This document shows positions 1 through 6,772 of a stretch of 64,000 nucleotides of DNA, piece after piece (position 1 is the first letter of the stretch; each line of letters begins with the position of its first letter). The DNA lies in the NCBI GenBank assembly GCA_965203355.1, contig OZ241889.1, forward strand, positions 768,001 through 832,000. Reading direction: 5' to 3'. The notes under the pieces are model-generated. The model was not told where the DNA came from, ran no database searches, and worked only from the letters and a program-made list of their open reading frames with translations. Made by a program: the position numbers and the translations under genes. Source of the stretch: Candidatus Latescibacterota bacterium (GTDB taxonomy: Bacteria > Latescibacterota > UBA2968 > UBA8231).

Positions 1-2
1 AC

Positions 3-2000
3 GGAATCAAGGTCGCTATAGGCGGGGTTTCGGAGGACTTGAAACAACATCTGACAAGTCTGAACGATGGAAAGATCCAAACGACAGACATTGAAAGTCA
101 GACTCAAAAACAGCTACAACAAGTGGTATCGGAATTTTATTCGCTACACGAAGAACAGGTGCGCCGAGTAAAAGAGAATCATGCACGGTTGGACAAATTC
201 TCTATTGCCCTCTTTGGTCGAACAATGAGTGGTAAGTCGACGTTGATGGAGATCTTAACTAACGGCGACGGGTCGTCCATCGGCAAGGGCGGCCAGCGCA
301 CGACCCGAGACGTGCGTAGCTATGATTGGAAAGGACTCAAAATTATCGATGTGCCCGGTATAGCTGCATTTGAGGGCCGTGAGGACGAAGAAAAGGCATT
401 CGAGGCCGCCGCTCAATCGGACTTAGTGCTTTTTCTCATTACTGACGATGCTCCACAGAACGAAGAAGCAGAGTGCTTCGCACGTGTTCGGGCACTCGGG
501 AAACCGATTTTGGGTATCTGCAACGTTAAAGACGCTCTCAACAATGCGGACGATATGCACCTTTTTTTAAGAAGGAATTGGTTCAACCGCAGACGAAAGG
601 CTCTCGATGCTATCGTCCGGCAATTCCACGAATTCGCGGAGAAATATAGTCCAGGTAGCCGAATACAGTTCGTTTATACCCATTTGCAGTCAAAATTCCT
701 ATCTCAACAGCCCGATTATGAACCGCAGCAGAGCAAGTTGGAGGACGTGAGCCGCTTCAACAACGTCGAAAAGCAGATTATTTCGGAAGTGGTCGCCCGT
801 GGAACATTTCTACGTTGGAAGAGCTTCATTGATGGTGCTGTCGTTCCAATGCTTGAGTTTAGCGAAAAATTGCTGGACTTTAGTGCTCAGCACTCGTCCA
901 GTGGCAGAGTTCTCATAGACAAGCAACGTCAAGTCAAGTCGTGGTCTGATGGATTTCGCAAAAGTGGACAAGAACGCATTGATACATTTATTAAAAAAGA
1001 AATGAACGCGCTGTGTGCTAAAATTCCGGGATTCGCGGAAGATAACTACGAGGCCCATGATGCTGGCGACAGCTGGAAACTATTAGTCGAAAATCAAAGC
1101 ATAGAGTCAAAGGCAGAGGAACTTGTCGAGCAAATTCAGAGTGAATGTGAAGACGAACTGTCGGAAATCGCACGGCAACTAAAATCCGAACTGAATTTTG
1201 TCGATAAATTTGCTGGTGACCGCAGGATTAGCATGGATTCTATATTTGATGCAAAACGCGCTTGGAATTGGACGACCTGTATTATTTCTGGTGGACTTAG
1301 AATTGCTGCTTTTTTTTCCAGTGGTCCTCTTGGATGGGCTTCGGTGGCAATTATTATTACAGGAAAGGTCCTTTCTTGGTTCTTTGAAGACCGAGAAGAA
1401 AAGGCGAGGAAACAACGCAAAAAGCTCGAAAAAAGGCTTAAACGTGATGTCAGCAAGATAGAACTTAAACTACGAAAGGAACTTGACGCCCAATTCCATC
1501 TTCTCAAAAAGCAAGTTTATGTTAGCCTCCGGGGCTTTGATCCGATCATATCGAGCACTTTAGAACTGGCAGATAAACAGAGGGACTTGGCTTGGAGGAT
1601 CAACAAGCAGCAGAAAGAACTGCACCGTATTTTGCTTAATAGAGCACTTGATGAGTTTGGACGTAGAAGTAGTGATAATCTCATATTGGACGTAGCGCGA
1701 GTGCCTGGACTGGCAACTATGCTTTTGATAGAGCCTAAAACTACATTTTCAGAGGACGTGCGTAGGGGGCTGAAGAAGATTCTTGGAGAAAATGTTTGGT
1801 TCGTAGTCAATACTCGCAAGAGATCAATTCTATCGCAAGCCATTGGACGCGATTGTGATCCGAGTAAGGTTAGTATTGAATCAAGAATTCAAGTCGCACA
1901 TGTGCCGGTGGGACAACTCGACGCGGTTGGCATCTCTCGGGTCAAGTTAGCACAGCAGTTGACCGAATTACATGTGATGGAATCAACAGGAAGGAATTAA
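3..2000 (+). CDS. Dynamin-like/TRAFAC GTPase (LeoBC-like partner) with hydrophobic paddle and C-terminal NusA-like KH region; probably 5'-truncated by the window
   Basis: G1 GRTMSGKST, G2 RTT, G3 DVPG, G4 NVKD; coiled coils; hydrophobic segment WTTCIISGGLRIAAFFSSGPLGWASVAIII. The frame is open from base 3, so the TTG at 39 may not be the true start. Lower GC than the backbone. Confidence 0.8.
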   Translation, partial: GIKVAIGGVSEDLKQHLTSLNDGKIQTTDIESQTQKQLQQVVSEFYSLHEEQVRRVKENHARLDKFSIALFGRTMSGKSTLMEILTNGDGSSIGKGGQRTTRDVRSYDWKGLKIIDVPGIAAFEGREDEEKAFEAAAQSDLVLFLITDDAPQNEEAECFARVRALGKPILGICNVKDALNNADDMHLFLRRNWFNRRRKALDAIVRQFHEFAEKYSPGSRIQFVYTHLQSKFLSQQPDYEPQQSKLEDVSRFNNVEKQIISEVVARGTFLRWKSFIDGAVVPMLEFSEKLLDFSAQHSSSGRVLIDKQRQVKSWSDGFRKSGQERIDTFIKKEMNALCAKIPGFAEDNYEAHDAGDSWKLLVENQSIESKAEELVEQIQSECEDELSEIARQLKSELNFVDKFAGDRRISMDSIFDAKRAWNWTTCIISGGLRIAAFFSSGPLGWASVAIIITGKVLSWFFEDREEKARKQRKKLEKRLKRDVSKIELKLRKELDAQFHLLKKQVYVSLRGFDPIISSTLELADKQRDLAWRINKQQKELHRILLNRALDEFGRRSSDNLILDVARVPGLATMLLIEPKTTFSEDVRRGLKKILGENVWFVVNTRKRSILSQAIGRDCDPSKVSIESRIQVAHVPVGQLDAVGISRVKLAQQLTELHVMESTGRN

Positions 2001-2003
2001 CCA

Positions 2004-3734
2004 TTGAAAACGCTAGAACTTCAACAGTGGACAAAAAAAGGACAGACTCTGCTCAAAAATGCAGAAAGGGTTCTCAAAGATGCGCCTTTTGACAAGGTGC
2101 GAGATCTTGTACGAAGGATTCCGAGAGAAATAGCACCTGATGATGAATCTGTACAGGTAGTTTTTGCCGGTCAATACAGTGCTGGCAAGTCTTCGATTCT
2201 CAAGGTGATGACGGAAAGAGAAGACATAGCTATTGGGGCTGGTATCACGACTCAACAAGTGCAACAGCTCGACTGGAACGGTATCAAGGTAATAGATACG
2301 CCTGGTGTCCATACGGAGATACGCCCCGACCACGACGCAATAACGTACGAGGCGATCAGTAAAGCGGATCTTTTGGTCTTTGTCGTTACTAACGAGTTAT
2401 TTGACGCCCACATCGCAGAGCATTTCAGAAAACTCGCCATTGAACGGGAAAAAGCCCACGAAATGCTGTTGGTCGTCAACAAGATGCAGCGCCATGCCCA
2501 AGGAAATACAACAGCCGCTCAGGATGTGATACGGGAAGACCTCCGAAAAGTTCTCGTGCCGTTTACCCCGGAACAGCTTCGCCTGTCTTTTGTGGATGCT
2601 GAGGCTGCGCTTGAGGCTCGTGCAGAGCAGGACGAAGAGTTTAGCAGGATACTCCTTAAAAGAAGTGGCTTTGACGACTTCTTCAACAGTTTCAATACGT
2701 TCGTGAAAGAAAAGGGATTAGCTGCACGTTATACAACATCGCTCTATACGCTTGAACAGGTGCTACAAGAGGCCCTCGCAGCCGAATCGAGCGATGATGT
2801 CGGTGTAGATGCTTTACAAGAATTACTTATCCAGCAAAGACGTGTATTAGTGAATGGTAAGGCGCGGCTTTCACAGGCAGCGGAAAGCCAGATCCAACAG
2901 ACGATAAACAAAATTCAAGAGGAAGGACGCCAGGCTGCCAACCTAATTCGTGGAGATGCTGACACCGAGGCTGTTAATCAGAAACTAACGGTCGCCCAAG
3001 AGTACGTTGAAAAACAGGCGGATGAGCTGTCGGGTCTCATTCAAGATACGATGAAAGAGAATTTCGGCGATCTCGCTAAGCTGGTGGGGCAAATCGCGGA
3101 GAGCGAATTGGCCAAAGAGTTGCTGTCGAGGCTTAGAGAAAGAGTCCAGGATCTCGATATTGATCCAGAGATGTCGTCTAACATGAAACAAGTTGGAGAT
3201 GTAACCCGCCGACTTGGGGAGTTCCTCGTAGAAAAATCGTTTACCCCTACAACCTCGACCCTCTCCGGTCTGTTCAAACTTAACCAGTATTCGGGTACGG
3301 TAACTCATAGCACAGTTAAATCCATTGGTCACTTCTTTGGGAAATCTTTTAAGCCATGGGAGGCGGTAAAATGGACGCGTACAATCGCAAACGCTAGTCG
3401 GGTTTTGGCCGTAGCAGGGGCTGTTTTGAACATTGCGTTTCAATTCAAAGAAGACGCCGATGCTGCCAAGCGGGAGCAGGAATTGCGTGAAGGCCGAGTA
3501 GCTGTGCGTGCGGGATTTGATGAAGCTGCCCACGCAGTTGAACTCCATTACGATAAATTGACTGACACTTATGTAGATCAAACCATCGGCAAGCGCATTG
3601 CAGAGATAGATGAGGAACTTGAAGAACTCAGAAACATGCAGGAATCTCGCAGCGATCTCTTCCAAGAACTCAATGGTTTGTTAAAGGATACTAGGGGACT
3701 TATTTCGGAGATGCACTCAGCGCAACCGAGTTAA
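2004..3734 (+). CDS. LeoA/HP0731-family dynamin-like GTPase
   Basis: G1 GQYSAGKSS, G3 DTPG, G4 NKMQ; LeoA-type FKPW motif (GHFFGKSFKPWEAVK) followed by a hydrophobic helix; starts 3 nt after the upstream stop with an AGGAAGG RBS. Confidence 0.8.
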   Translation: MKTLELQQWTKKGQTLLKNAERVLKDAPFDKVRDLVRRIPREIAPDDESVQVVFAGQYSAGKSSILKVMTEREDIAIGAGITTQQVQQLDWNGIKVIDTPGVHTEIRPDHDAITYEAISKADLLVFVVTNELFDAHIAEHFRKLAIEREKAHEMLLVVNKMQRHAQGNTTAAQDVIREDLRKVLVPFTPEQLRLSFVDAEAALEARAEQDEEFSRILLKRSGFDDFFNSFNTFVKEKGLAARYTTSLYTLEQVLQEALAAESSDDVGVDALQELLIQQRRVLVNGKARLSQAAESQIQQTINKIQEEGRQAANLIRGDADTEAVNQKLTVAQEYVEKQADELSGLIQDTMKENFGDLAKLVGQIAESELAKELLSRLRERVQDLDIDPEMSSNMKQVGDVTRRLGEFLVEKSFTPTTSTLSGLFKLNQYSGTVTHSTVKSIGHFFGKSFKPWEAVKWTRTIANASRVLAVAGAVLNIAFQFKEDADAAKREQELREGRVAVRAGFDEAAHAVELHYDKLTDTYVDQTIGKRIAEIDEELEELRNMQESRSDLFQELNGLLKDTRGLISEMHSAQPS

Positions 3735-3801
3735 TACTGGGGTACAAGCTATCTATAAAAAGGCGTCGGTTGCACATAGACCCTGCGCCCATTGCCCTTT
3801 T

Positions 3802-3840
3802 TTAAATGAGAGGGATGTGCTCATCGACCAAAATTTTCAT
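3802..3840 (-). pseudogene. Truncated DUF5615/PIN-like toxin remnant (MKILVDEHIPLI*)
   Basis: ATG overlaps the DUF433 stop (ATGA); the 12 codons match the usual MKxLxDE(N/H)I start of DUF5615 toxins, then TAA. Confidence 0.7.
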
Positions 3841-4073
3841 CCCTCACCCGAGAGAACCTCAAGAGGGGCCATTTGCTCTTCAGCGAGTGAGGCTGCATAG
3901 TCGAAGCAAGCGAGGATATCTTCCCACGTTAGAGAAGGATATTCTCGAAGTAGGTCTTCGGTGGTATCTCCGTTGGCGAGCATCCGAAGGATTTGATGCA
4001 CGGGAAGGCGAGTCCCCTTAATGCAAGCCTGGCCGTGATACACTTGAGGATCAATAGTAATTCGGTTTTCCAT
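3837..4073 (-). CDS. DUF433 antitoxin-like protein
   Basis: RITIDPQVYHGQACIKGTRLPV...LLREYPSLTWEDILAC signature; GGAGG RBS. Confidence 0.92.
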   Translation of the reverse strand: MENRITIDPQVYHGQACIKGTRLPVHQILRMLANGDTTEDLLREYPSLTWEDILACFDYAASLAEEQMAPLEVLSGEG

Positions 4074-4097
4074 ACTCTCATTTTCCTCCGGTTATAA

Positions 4098-4880
4098 TCA
4101 TCGCCGCCATACGCTCGTCCGCAGCCCTTCGATACCTTCGGCCAAGGCGCGGCGATAGAGCCACAAGTCGCCGCCATACGCTATGCAGCGAAATCCTCGG
4201 CGCAGCATCTCAGTTCCTTCCTCAATGGTATTGACCAAGTAACCAGCGGCCTTGCCGTGGTGCTCACAGGCATCGACGACGCGGGCGAGGGCGGCGGTGA
4301 ATTCGGGATGGTCAAATTGCCCGGGAATCCCCAAGAAGTTGCTCAGGTCAAACCCCCCTATCCACAGCACATCAATCCCATCTACCGCGGCGATGCGATC
4401 GACGTTTTCGAGCCCGGGGCGATTTTCGATCTGAGCGACTAGCAGGCCCTCGGTGTTGGCGTGCTCTATTTTGCCGATAATGGAACCTTCGGCGAAGTGG
4501 TCGTGGGCAATTTGAAAGGCTGCGCCGCGCTGGCCAATGGGCGGATACTTGCCCGACTGCACGATGACCTCGGCCTGCTGCGCGTCGCTAACCATAGGCA
4601 CCATGATGCCTCGGGCCCCCACGTCGAGGACGCGGGCGATGAAATGGTACTGGGTGGCCGGCACCCGCACAAAAGGCTCGATGTGGTCGGAGTTGGTGGT
4701 GGCGATAAGGTCGCGCACCGTCTCGACGCTCCAGCCGGTGTGCTCCATGTCGTACATAATGAATTCAGCCCCAGCCTCGGCAGAGAGGCGAGCAATACCC
4801 GGAGTGCAAAACTCAAAGGTCATGGTGCCAATGACGGTGCCGCCCTCTTTGAGGGCGCGTTTGACTTTGTTGGGTTTCAT
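4098..4880 (-). CDS. HpcH/HpaI aldolase family protein
   Basis: YDMEH, RVLDVGARGIMVP, AQIE, GIDVLWIGGFDLS motifs; start reassigned to MKPNK, which overlaps the upstream stop. Confidence 0.9.
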   Translation of the reverse strand: MKPNKVKRALKEGGTVIGTMTFEFCTPGIARLSAEAGAEFIMYDMEHTGWSVETVRDLIATTNSDHIEPFVRVPATQYHFIARVLDVGARGIMVPMVSDAQQAEVIVQSGKYPPIGQRGAAFQIAHDHFAEGSIIGKIEHANTEGLLVAQIENRPGLENVDRIAAVDGIDVLWIGGFDLSNFLGIPGQFDHPEFTAALARVVDACEHHGKAAGYLVNTIEEGTEMLRRGFRCIAYGGDLWLYRRALAEGIEGLRTSVWRR

Positions 4881-5920
4881 CCGATAGCTCGATAGCGGTT
4901 CAGTTTTTCTTTTAGACGGGGGTGCTCGGCCGCTTGAGGATTGACGAGGTACTGGGGCAAGCGGCCAGAGGCCACTTCGACGAGACTGCGACAGGCACTG
5001 CGGCCATTGAGGCGGAAGCACTCGTCAGTCCAACATAGCCCGTGCGGGGCGACGATAGTCTGGTCGGTAAGTGCCAACACCGGCTCGTCTTGGGGCACAG
5101 GTTCTGTTTCAAAGACGTCGAGGGCGGCACCGGCGATCTGCCCTCGTTGGAGGGCGCGAGTGAGAGCCTGCTGATCGACGATGGTGCCACGGGCCGTGTT
5201 GATGAGATAGGTGCTTTGCTTCATCAGTGCAAGCTCGCGCTCGCCTATGAGGTGATGGGTTTCCTCGGTGAGCGTACAGCAGATGCAGACGTAGTCGGCA
5301 CTTTGCAGCAATTGGTCGAGCTCGACCAGTTCGGCACCAGCAGCGTATGCCTGTGCTGCATCGACAAAAGGGTCGGCGGCAATGCAGCGAATGTCGAAGG
5401 GCTTGGCCAAGGTGCAGATCTCGCGACCGATGTTGCCCAAACCGACTAGTCCCAGCGTGCGGCCGGTGACGCCCATGCCCATGTAATCGAGGCGCTCGTG
5501 CCAGCGGCCCTCGCGCACCAAGCGATCCTTGGCCAGCATTTTGTGGCTGAGGGCCAAGAGGTACGTCAGTGCCATGACCGCTACAGGTCGGCGCACGCCG
5601 TCGGGGGTGATCGTCAAGAGTACGCCCCGCTCGTTGCAAGCTGCCACATCAACGCTGTCGTAACCAACGCCGAAGCGGGCGACGATTGCCAGCTTGTCTG
5701 CTCCCTGCAAGGTCTCGGCACTAACTATCGAAGCGAGAACCAGTAGGCCATCGTAGCCGCCGATCTGGTCGGGGCGTAGTTCGGTGGTGTTTTCCGTTAG
5801 AAACTCCCACTCTACCCTTGGGGATTCGTCGAGCAAGCCGAGACCAATGTCGCCGAAGCCTAGGGTCCCGTCGTCCTTGAGAAAGTCGCGGGTGACGCCA
5901 ATGCGAAAAGTTGTAGTCAT
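4877..5920 (-). CDS. D-isomer-specific 2-hydroxyacid dehydrogenase
   Basis: GVGYD, GLGNIG, INTARG, LDVFETEP, APH motifs. Confidence 0.92.
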   Translation of the reverse strand: MTTTFRIGVTRDFLKDDGTLGFGDIGLGLLDESPRVEWEFLTENTTELRPDQIGGYDGLLVLASIVSAETLQGADKLAIVARFGVGYDSVDVAACNERGVLLTITPDGVRRPVAVMALTYLLALSHKMLAKDRLVREGRWHERLDYMGMGVTGRTLGLVGLGNIGREICTLAKPFDIRCIAADPFVDAAQAYAAGAELVELDQLLQSADYVCICCTLTEETHHLIGERELALMKQSTYLINTARGTIVDQQALTRALQRGQIAGAALDVFETEPVPQDEPVLALTDQTIVAPHGLCWTDECFRLNGRSACRSLVEVASGRLPQYLVNPQAAEHPRLKEKLNRYRAIG

Positions 5921-6118
5921 GGCGACAAACAAGATAGGGCCTGACGGGCAGCTATCAAGGGGAGAGGTGGCTGTATAGGATCGGGATCACATTGTCTGCG
6001 ATTAGATACAGAAAAGTGGCTGCACAACGGAAATCTCGCCTATAAAAAAAGGTGGTTCGCATTTTGCTTATCTGCTCCTGTGGCTTACTTTTCACCTTAA
6101 CCAAGGAGCAATACTGAG

Positions 6119-6772
6119 ATGGCCCCTGAAACATCTGAGATAACCACCCGCGACGTGTTGCAGCAGATCGACCGCCGCTTGGAACTGATTGAAAGCGACG
6201 TGCGAGTGGTCAGCGAGAAGTTGGATGTGTCGGTTCAGACGCTGAATGACAAGATTGACACGTCGGTTCAGACACTGCGCGATGAAGGTGCGTCGTCGGT
6301 TCAGACGCTGTGCGCTGAGAATGCGTCGTCGTATCGGAGTCTGCACGAGAAGTGGGATGCGTCGGTTCAGACGTTGCGCGATGAAAGTGCGTCGTCCTTT
6401 CAGACGTTGCGTGATGAGAATGCGTCGTCATATCGGAGTCTGAATGACAAGATTGACACGTCGGTTCAGACGCTTCGTGATGAAAGTGCGTCGTCCTTTC
6501 AGACGCTGAATGACAAGATTGACACGTCGGTTCAGACGCTGCGCGATGAAAGTGCGTCGTCCTTTCAGACGCTGCGTGCTGAGAATGCGGCGTCATATCG
6601 GAGTCTGAACGAGAAGTGGGATGCGTCAGAGCGCAATTTGAACAATAAGTACGACGCGATCGTGCGCGATTTCCACGACAAGCTAGGGACCTATTTCCGC
6701 TGGACCATCGGCATTGTGCTAGCTAGCTGGCTGTCCACTATGGGCGCGATCCTGTTCAAAGGTTCATTGTAG
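6119..6772 (+). CDS. Coiled-coil protein with 11-aa tandem repeats and C-terminal membrane anchor (DUF1640/CCDC90/Bdr-like architecture)
   Basis: AAGGAG RBS; 12 near-identical 11-mers; C-terminal FRWTIGIVLASWLSTMGAILF helix. Confidence 0.75.
   Translation: MAPETSEITTRDVLQQIDRRLELIESDVRVVSEKLDVSVQTLNDKIDTSVQTLRDEGASSVQTLCAENASSYRSLHEKWDASVQTLRDESASSFQTLRDENASSYRSLNDKIDTSVQTLRDESASSFQTLNDKIDTSVQTLRDESASSFQTLRAENAASYRSLNEKWDASERNLNNKYDAIVRDFHDKLGTYFRWTIGIVLASWLSTMGAILFKGSL
6230..6625 (+). repeat. Tandem array of 12 x 33-bp coding repeats
   Basis: Units such as TCGGTTCAGACGCTGAATGACAAGATTGACACG recur with 33-nt period. Confidence 0.95.

Follow-up and report, generated by a model that had tools for sequence, protein, structure and literature searches.

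The LeoBC protein of a Candidatus Latescibacterota bacterium, a dynamin-like GTPase that forms an Eleos defence gene pair with its neighbour LeoA, ends in a tail which is very probably a domesticated form of the tandem KH1-KH2 module of the transcription factor NusA, with the helix-GXXG segments lost from both of its halves. The gene opens the stretch of 64,000 nucleotides that we have analysed, here called the window (contig OZ241889.1, positions 768,001 to 832,000, assembly GCA_965203355.1), and the complete protein of 706 amino acids (P0003 in our numbering) is 100% identical to the frame at 3..2000, with 41 residues lying outside the window. As a whole, the explanation that we favour, and towards which the evidence leans modestly, is that a NusA-derived KH tandem is conserved in the LeoBC proteins of Eleos and has been repurposed there.

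In B. subtilis, a two-gene dynamin-like system of B. vietnamensis gives protection from only two phages, the jumbo phages AR9 and PBS1, and mutation of the P-loop in either gene abolishes defence, by a mechanism that the accessible text of the report leaves unexplained (10.1101/2022.05.11.491447). The name Eleos is used for such systems by Cury et al. (10.1101/2022.12.12.520048), where the accessible text describes only dynamin-like and P-loop domains. For the LeoABC proteins of enterotoxigenic E. coli (ETEC), the available part of the published account lays out LeoB as the remainder of a GTPase, a middle domain, a membrane-binding region and a GED (Michie et al., 2014, PMC4159319).

Fold and ancestry of the LeoBC tail

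The tail is encoded at window positions 1677-1997 (+ strand, frame 3), a stretch of 107 amino acids that we modelled with AlphaFold2, using no templates and an alignment of the tail with 72 LeoBC homologues. The model has a predicted local distance difference test score (pLDDT) of 92.0 and a predicted template modelling score (pTM) of 0.82, and its topology is strand-strand-helix-strand, helix, strand-strand-helix-strand. When the model was compared with the Protein Data Bank (PDB) by Foldseek, all 14 matches at E <= 0.001 were NusA chains (E 2.8e-5 to 9.4e-4; template modelling scores of 0.67-0.77 normalised to the model). Independently of Foldseek, VIA-align was run against 48,161 representative chains, and its top four were the NusA proteins of E. 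coli, M. tuberculosis (two entries) and T. maritima, at Z 11.0-11.6 and a root mean square deviation (rmsd) of 2.4-2.7 Å over 105-106 of the 107 tail residues, with residues 221-347 of E. coli NusA covered. The archaeal two-KH protein APE1850 (2cy1) followed at Z 9.2, S. acidocaldarius NusA2 (9fjl) and a planctomycete NusA (4mtn) were found at Z 7.5 and 7.4, and the remaining folds stood at Z 6.7 or lower (about 5-6.7), with a much poorer rmsd or with only half of the domain aligned. Going by the model, the tail consists of a pair of type II KH folds with the packing seen in NusA (5lm9, 1k0r, 1hh2, 2asb). A look-up of the tail in the ESM Atlas gave no usable match.

The GTPase Der/EngA (6xrs) also has a KH-derived domain that lacks GXXG, although this GTPase serves ribosome assembly and its KH-like domain is single, not a NusA-type tandem. 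Its C-terminal domain (6xrs_A) aligned with the tail at Z 4.0 over 54 residues, far under NusA and across half of the domain, and a Der/EngA-like identity of the tail was rejected on this weak match.

Profile comparison gives the same answer as the model. Using hhalign, the 72 tails were aligned with the NusA sequences of 35 genomes of the relatives' phylum at a score of 46.4 (90.6%, E 1.3e-6, 99 columns), setting tail residues 2-101 on NusA 230-345, whereas the highest score among 60 column-shuffled NusA alignments was 22.2 and the reversed alignment scored 19.0. Within this register the tail has a gap of 11 residues that coincides exactly with the helix-GXXG segment of KH1 in NusA, while a second gap, of 3 residues, falls over the KH2 GXXG. 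The motifs ARxPG, a GE-hydrophobic-strand and RLAxQLT are common to the tail and NusA, at an identity of only 16-24%. Thus the tail is like NusA in its two-domain fold, its packing and its colinear profile match; it differs in that NusA has both helix-GXXG segments, which the window tail has lost, and in that NusA carries its KH tandem together with N-terminal, S1 and C-terminal domains, whereas the window tail is carried by a dynamin-like GTPase.

An earlier reading of this DNA, made from the sequence only, had quoted residues at 1678-1990 and likened them by eye to NusA KH1-KH2, with the GxxG loops missing. Every quoted segment is present in frame 3 within the 107-residue stretch, although the start had been placed one base off the codon phase, which is at 1677. 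The register seen by eye is the one that hhalign returned, the missing loops correspond to the two gaps, and the KH fold that this sequence-only reading had wanted checked by a structure search of the tail is what Foldseek and VIA-align both retrieved, with NusA at the top.

The relationship is made firmer by a second type of LeoBC. A tblastn search against plasmids gave 22 records, including a B. cereus plasmid and a Klebsiella plasmid with the same two-GTPase arrangement. In the Bacillales-type LeoBC of the B. cereus plasmid pMRY14-0105_1 (WP_074585632.1), a hidden Markov model (HMM) of the window-type tail covers the entire tail, which has a textbook KH2 in which GXXG is followed by a NIRLAQ helix. 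Searching with this tail gave 14 Bacillales-type proteins (P0194-P0207), all of which carry a precomputed match to PF26594. As PF26594 stands beside PF13184 in 120 of the 120 NusA proteins listed, we infer that it is the NusA family for the second KH, and we take its name to be KH_NusA_2nd. Pfam matches of the Bacillales-type proteins to KH_1, KH_NusA_C, KH_2 and KH_5 lie below threshold at residues 643-723, and a NusA KH HMM matches all 11 of the Bacillales-type tails that were tested (21-39 bits). In hhalign these tails align with NusA at 98.2% (E 4.2e-14, 106 columns) and with the window-type tails at 98.1% (E 6.5e-14), while the two types of tail merged align with NusA at 96.7%. The Bacillales-type tail is the INTERMEDIATE form, linked to both sides at 98%, and the homology of the window tail with NusA is therefore settled.

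The two types of tail stand at the same place, at the end of a LeoBC protein of about 720 residues with the second GTPase encoded next to it, are homologous over their whole length and share a KH1 without GXXG. They differ in that the Bacillales-type tail has kept the KH2 GXXG and is seen by both the NusA KH HMM and PF26594, whereas the tail of the window clade has lost 3-4 residues at this place and escapes both: it falls under the threshold of every Pfam KH family, and none of the 120 close relatives listed has a precomputed PF26594 match.

Loop loss and conservation across LeoBC proteins

The KH2 GXXG is present in 13 of the 14 Bacillales-type tails and is basic, for example IGRKG or IGKKG, and the KH1 GXXG is absent from Bacillales-type and window-type tails alike. 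The tail of the Klebsiella LeoBC has a half-degenerate GKDH. Only 5 of the 73 window-type tails have a G..G at all, at scattered positions; 2 of the 73 have one among the 28 residues that precede the final strand, though not where the Bacillales-type GXXG lies, and one of 62 distinct metagenome tails has one near the last helix. An ARxPG-like motif is kept in 61 of the same 62. Indeed, the most conserved positions of the tail, ARxPG, E38, R88 and the near-invariant LAQQL, are those it has in common with NusA. The net charge is not consistently basic, with a mean of +2.5 and a range from -6 to +10. KH domains make their defining contact with nucleic acid through the GXXG loop, and because both loops are deleted, canonical KH-type binding of RNA is unlikely for the tail of the window clade.

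The fusion itself is widely kept. An exhaustive phmmer search, in which the tail was run against 1.84 billion cluster representatives (50% identity), gave 76 clusters at E <= 1e-3, and the match ends 17 or fewer residues from the C-terminus in 35 of the 36 matches of 600 amino acids or more; the 36th is a repeat protein and was set aside, and the shorter matches look like gene fragments. Two matches of this search, P0179 and P0181, were set aside as due to repeats or low complexity, with 9-10 short repeated stretches and no GTPase domain. A metagenome survey confirmed 273 relatives, and among the loci of the 80 closest (33-59% identity) 76 encode a complete tail, which ends 0-1 residue before the stop codon in 67 of the 76, and the other four are truncated open reading frames (ORFs) or run into contig ends. 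Mean pairwise identity among 43 window-type proteins is 0.54 in the GTPase domain, 0.39 in the tail, 0.34 in the stalk and 0.25 in the N-terminal helices, which places the tail second to the GTPase domain in a set whose selection by tail similarity inflates the tail figure. By their source names the tail-bearing proteins come from Latescibacterota, Paceibacterota and Eubacteriales (at least three phyla), and the tail is kept full-length in sequences down to about 30% identity. As judged from these sequences, the tail belongs to the LeoBC family as a built-in and conserved C-terminal component and is not a one-off fusion.

Several relatives depart from the common form. A plasmid of Bacillus sp. 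CMF21 (L045) has a LeoBC relative at 2977-5010 in which positions 2-59 of the tail HMM match residues 606-663 of 677, and one of Pseudanabaena (L046) has a relative at 2446-4974 in which positions 3-46 match weakly at residues 795-838 of 842; both seem, by these alignments, to keep the first KH-like half only. A protein with a Rho N-terminal domain is annotated two genes upstream in the Pseudanabaena plasmid. Eight proteins (P0014, P0043, P0056, P0055, P0022, P0041, P0028 and P0030) have one or two basic repeats of about 45 residues after the tail, with the unit …REKREY..ESAIR.KKTWENKGY.VTRRGN.LYLK…, and Pfam found nothing in the post-tail repeat of P0014. Among the tail-bearing relatives, P0139 and P0134 also have N-terminal ankyrin repeats, and P0133 has a second P-loop/dynamin-like region at its N-terminus. 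In P0004 (519 amino acids) the last 35 or so residues of the tail are duplicated in tandem, so that a KH2-like strand-helix-strand is repeated, possibly as an assembly artefact. A blastn search of E. coli genomes with the Klebsiella LeoBC gene, seeking the tail of ETEC LeoB, gave no match.

The Eleos gene pair and its surroundings

The product of 3..2000 matches the PADLOC LeoBC profile PDLC03841 at E 1.3e-98 over residues 12-580 of the 665 within the window, and that of 2004..3734 matches the PADLOC LeoA profile at E 2.1e-109 over positions 6-555 of 559. The two genes are on the same strand and only 3 nucleotides separate the LeoBC stop from the TTG start of LeoA at 2004; a GGAAGGA at the end of the LeoBC gene is a candidate ribosome site for LeoA. 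In Pfam both proteins match the MMR_HSR1 GTPase family, and LeoA also matches DLP_helical and Dynamin_N above the cut-off. A LeoA-like ORF lies downstream of LeoBC in all six related genome loci, which are Candidatus Latescibacterota metagenome-assembled genomes and comprise all of the close genomic relatives, and in 77 of the 80 metagenome loci. From the two profile matches, the adjacency of the genes and a fold like that of BDLP and LeoA, the pair is therefore an Eleos ('Dynamins') system, and an ordinary member of this known kind.

In a full-length AlphaFold2 model of P0003 (pLDDT 81.7, pTM 0.77) the only disordered parts are residues 1-12 and 452-504, and the model is best matched in fold by BDLP (2j69, E 1.6e-9), LeoA (4aur), IniA, mitofusins and the dynamin-like protein (DLP) pair of Campylobacter. 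The architecture is thus predicted to be dynamin-like, with a GTPase domain that has G1, G3 and G4, a helical stalk and a predicted paddle, and the P-loop residues are invariant across 47 homologues. The hydrophobic segment at 452-504 is presumed to be the membrane paddle by analogy with BDLP and LeoA, as the latter is described in the available part of the published account (Michie et al., 2014). A placement of the tail beside the GTPase domain, like the C-terminus of BDLP, was considered and dropped, as the helix lengths in the full-length model leave the topology unsettled. The C. jejuni proteins DLP1 and DLP2 (5oxf, 5owv) are likewise a bacterial dynamin-like pair, but no KH-like domain was noted in them.

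The systems of B. vietnamensis and ETEC have the same adjacent dynamin-like GTPases, LeoBC and then LeoA, and a hydrophobic paddle segment, and differ in that the available text of their published accounts gives dynamin-like domains only. Neither of the two founding papers mentions NusA or a KH domain (10.1101/2022.05.11.491447; PMC4159319), and the word RNA is absent from Michie et al. (2014, PMC4159319). Full-text literature searches that combined bacterial dynamin-like proteins with KH domains gave unrelated papers only, and those that combined dynamin-like proteins with both NusA and KH domains gave none. The KH-like tail of LeoBC therefore seems undescribed in print, though automatic annotation by Pfam, through PF26594, flags the Bacillales-type version.

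The sequence-only reading had envisaged a fusion of the NusA-like domain to a dynamin-like GTPase within a membrane-acting GTPase pair, knew of no description of it, and had made its conservation among homologues a point to be checked. The LeoBC and LeoA matches and the BDLP/LeoA-like model are in keeping with the predicted pair, the metagenome survey found the fusion conserved, and the literature searches agree that no description is known, with the qualification that Pfam had already tagged the Bacillales-type relatives.

Table 1. Features of the LeoBC and LeoA genes, with positions in the window.
Feature	Position	Strand	Basis or remark
LeoBC-type dynamin-like GTPase gene, 5'-cut by the window edge	3..2000	+	residues 42-706 of P0003; stop TAA 1998-2000
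GTPase domain, P0003 105-292	192..755	+	Pfam MMR_HSR1, E 7.1e-13
G1 GRTMSGKS	216-239	+	motif in LeoBC GTPase domain
G3 DVPG	348-359	+	motif in LeoBC GTPase domain
G4 NVKD	522-533	+	motif in LeoBC GTPase domain
Hydrophobic Gly-rich segment, P0003 452-504	1233..1391	+	sole internal stretch with pLDDT < 50 in full-length model
Last long stalk helix, P0003 505-592, entering the tail	1392..1655	+	DSSP of full-length model
Tandem KH-like C-terminal domain, very probably NusA-derived, P0003 600-701	1677..1982	+	model fold, VIA-align, Foldseek, hhalign
Predicted KH1-like half: strand, strand (ARVPG), one helix, strand	1680..1808	+	model; NusA KH1 helix-GXXG segment deleted
Predicted KH2-like half: helix, strand, strand, one helix (SRVKLAQQLT), strand	1818..1982	+	model; GXXG lost, 3-4 residue gap
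Shine-Dalgarno-like GGAAGGA within the LeoBC gene end	1989..1995	+	8 nucleotides before LeoA start; read from sequence
LeoA-type dynamin-like GTPase gene, 576 amino acids	2004..3734	+	TTG start; no KH-like tail

The pair lies among metabolic genes with no obvious defence island around it; its neighbours, both here and in the related locus L001, are HpcH/HpaI aldolases, a 2-hydroxyacid dehydrogenase and an aldo-keto reductase. Its G+C content (44-49% across window 1-3700) is low against the about 59-61% of the metabolic genes that follow (4000-6000), which suggests that the pair is a small two-gene insert acquired by horizontal transfer. Directly downstream of LeoA, a 78-residue ORF at 3837-4073 (-) encodes a DUF433 protein (Pfam, E 1.7e-23), from a family that we take to be antitoxin-like. 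The ORFs of the HpcH-like aldolase (4098-5021, -) and the 2-hydroxyacid dehydrogenase (4877-5932, -) overlap by about 145 nucleotides, and the true start of the aldolase is probably further downstream than that of the listed ORF. At 6119-6772 (+) a 217-residue protein is built from degenerate repeats, for example SVQTLRDE.ASSFQTL, and is hydrophobic at its C-terminus; it gave only sub-threshold apolipoprotein-like matches, and a longer repeat protein stands at the syntenic place in L001 (14316-15554).

Possible roles of the tail

Because the tail is retained and conserved, it would be expected still to do something. We propose, tentatively, and as a possibility that we would not yet call probable, that it acts as a recognition or regulatory surface which gates LeoBC-LeoA. 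The tail retains the rigid two-domain scaffold of NusA without its RNA-gripping segments, and the Bacillales-type branch still possesses the KH2 GXXG that the branch of the window has lost. On this proposal the tail of the window clade would contact a protein or a non-canonical ligand instead of canonical RNA, and this contact would set when the LeoBC-LeoA pair uses GTP on the membrane. GXXG-less KH-like domains act through contacts outside the canonical RNA cleft, and, as an analogy only, an accessory domain mediates assembly of the C. jejuni DLP1/DLP2 pair. A predicted complex of LeoA with the tail gave an ipSAE of 0.00 in both of two runs made without controls, a result that speaks neither for nor against binding.

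A number of results weigh against a repurposed NusA module that no longer acts through RNA. With regard to ancestry, Pfam gave 0 families for the tail at E <= 1, using a copy of the database without PF26594, and a profile of 11 tails found no match at E <= 10 among PDB sequences, where phmmer with the tail had returned two chance-level matches (E 0.49 and 1.2), neither of them NusA. A KH_5 scan of five related genomes found NusA and missed the LeoBC tail, a NusA HMM matched P0003 at E 0.15 and at the wrong place, and hhalign with shallow profiles (11 fragment tails and 14 closely related NusA sequences) returned the same register at 17% (E 0.0014). With regard to conservation, the metagenome survey, being of the closest relatives, says little on distant LeoBC proteins. 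With regard to function, Bacillales-type proteins have kept the KH2 GXXG, a sign that some members of the family may depend on binding nucleic acid, and given the slightly positive mean charge the window clade may bind RNA or DNA in a non-canonical way.

These functional points could indicate that the tail is a nucleic-acid sensor, in which phage RNA or single-stranded DNA, bound by a non-canonical surface (or by the KH2 GXXG in the Bacillales-type), triggers the GTPase pair. AR9 and PBS1 carry their own RNA polymerases. Such a sensor would fit the descent of the tail from an RNA-binding module, the basic KH2 GXXG of 13 of the 14 Bacillales-type tails, the mean net charge of +2.5 in the window-type tails and, as far as the available text of the report goes, the action of the one tested Eleos on those two jumbo phages only (10.1101/2022.05.11.491447). 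The Bacillales-type tail may indeed bind RNA or single-stranded DNA through its basic KH2 GXXG, which leaves the sensor idea more plausible for the family at large than for the window clade, and the Bacillales-type systems would, by inference, include relatives of the system that stops AR9 and PBS1. However, the window clade has deleted both GXXG segments and the charge of its tails reaches -6, and we consider a sensor of this kind unlikely, if still worthy of attention.

Somewhat less likely again is that the tail is a structural vestige, binding no ligand itself and serving to cap the stalk end or make it more stable. The residues that are most conserved, ARxPG, E38, R88 and LAQQL, are those common with NusA and possibly belong to the core of the fold and not to a new binding site, and the CMF21 and Pseudanabaena relatives appear to keep the first half only. 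Against this stand its retention at full length to about 30% identity in at least three phyla and its being more conserved than the stalk helices, the latter in a set chosen by tail similarity.

The tail could also be a decoy of NusA, such that a phage transcription factor which docks on NusA binds LeoBC instead and triggers the system. Retention of the NusA scaffold and inter-domain geometry (rmsd 2.4 Å over 105 residues) with loss of the RNA loops is in keeping with a decoy, but the surface features of NusA are unlikely to have been kept at 16-24% identity, and we give this idea very little credence; a search of the predicted viral structures in BFVD with the tail gave no match at E <= 0.001, which is uninformative on binders. 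Finally, convergence or chance as the source of the resemblance to NusA, with the tail being an unrelated alpha/beta domain, is disfavoured to the point of being hardly credible, since the absence of Pfam and PDB sequence matches and the 17% obtained with shallow profiles are set against a Z of 11-11.6 for NusA and about 5-6.7 for other folds, colinearity over both domains, far lower scores in the shuffle and reversal controls, and a 98% link on both sides through Bacillales-type tails that carry PF26594.

We return to a NusA-derived KH tandem that has been conserved and repurposed in LeoBC. A more far-reaching form of this idea, which we regard as unlikely in its entirety, is that Eleos senses infection by means of a captured piece of host NusA, where the Bacillales-type tail would bind RNA and the window-clade tail would be an RNA-blind mimic by which a phage protein or a transcription complex is recognised, in each case licensing GTP-driven action on the membrane.

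Eleos is an experimentally validated defence system, and the published accounts, as far as their available text extends, are silent on how it senses infection. The conserved, non-dynamin tail of LeoBC is an obvious candidate for its sensing or regulatory part, and the two states in which the tail occurs naturally, GXXG-intact and GXXG-deleted, give clean predictions. The tail also exemplifies how an immune GTPase can capture a module from a housekeeping transcription factor, and it offers a first testable handle on how Eleos might be controlled.

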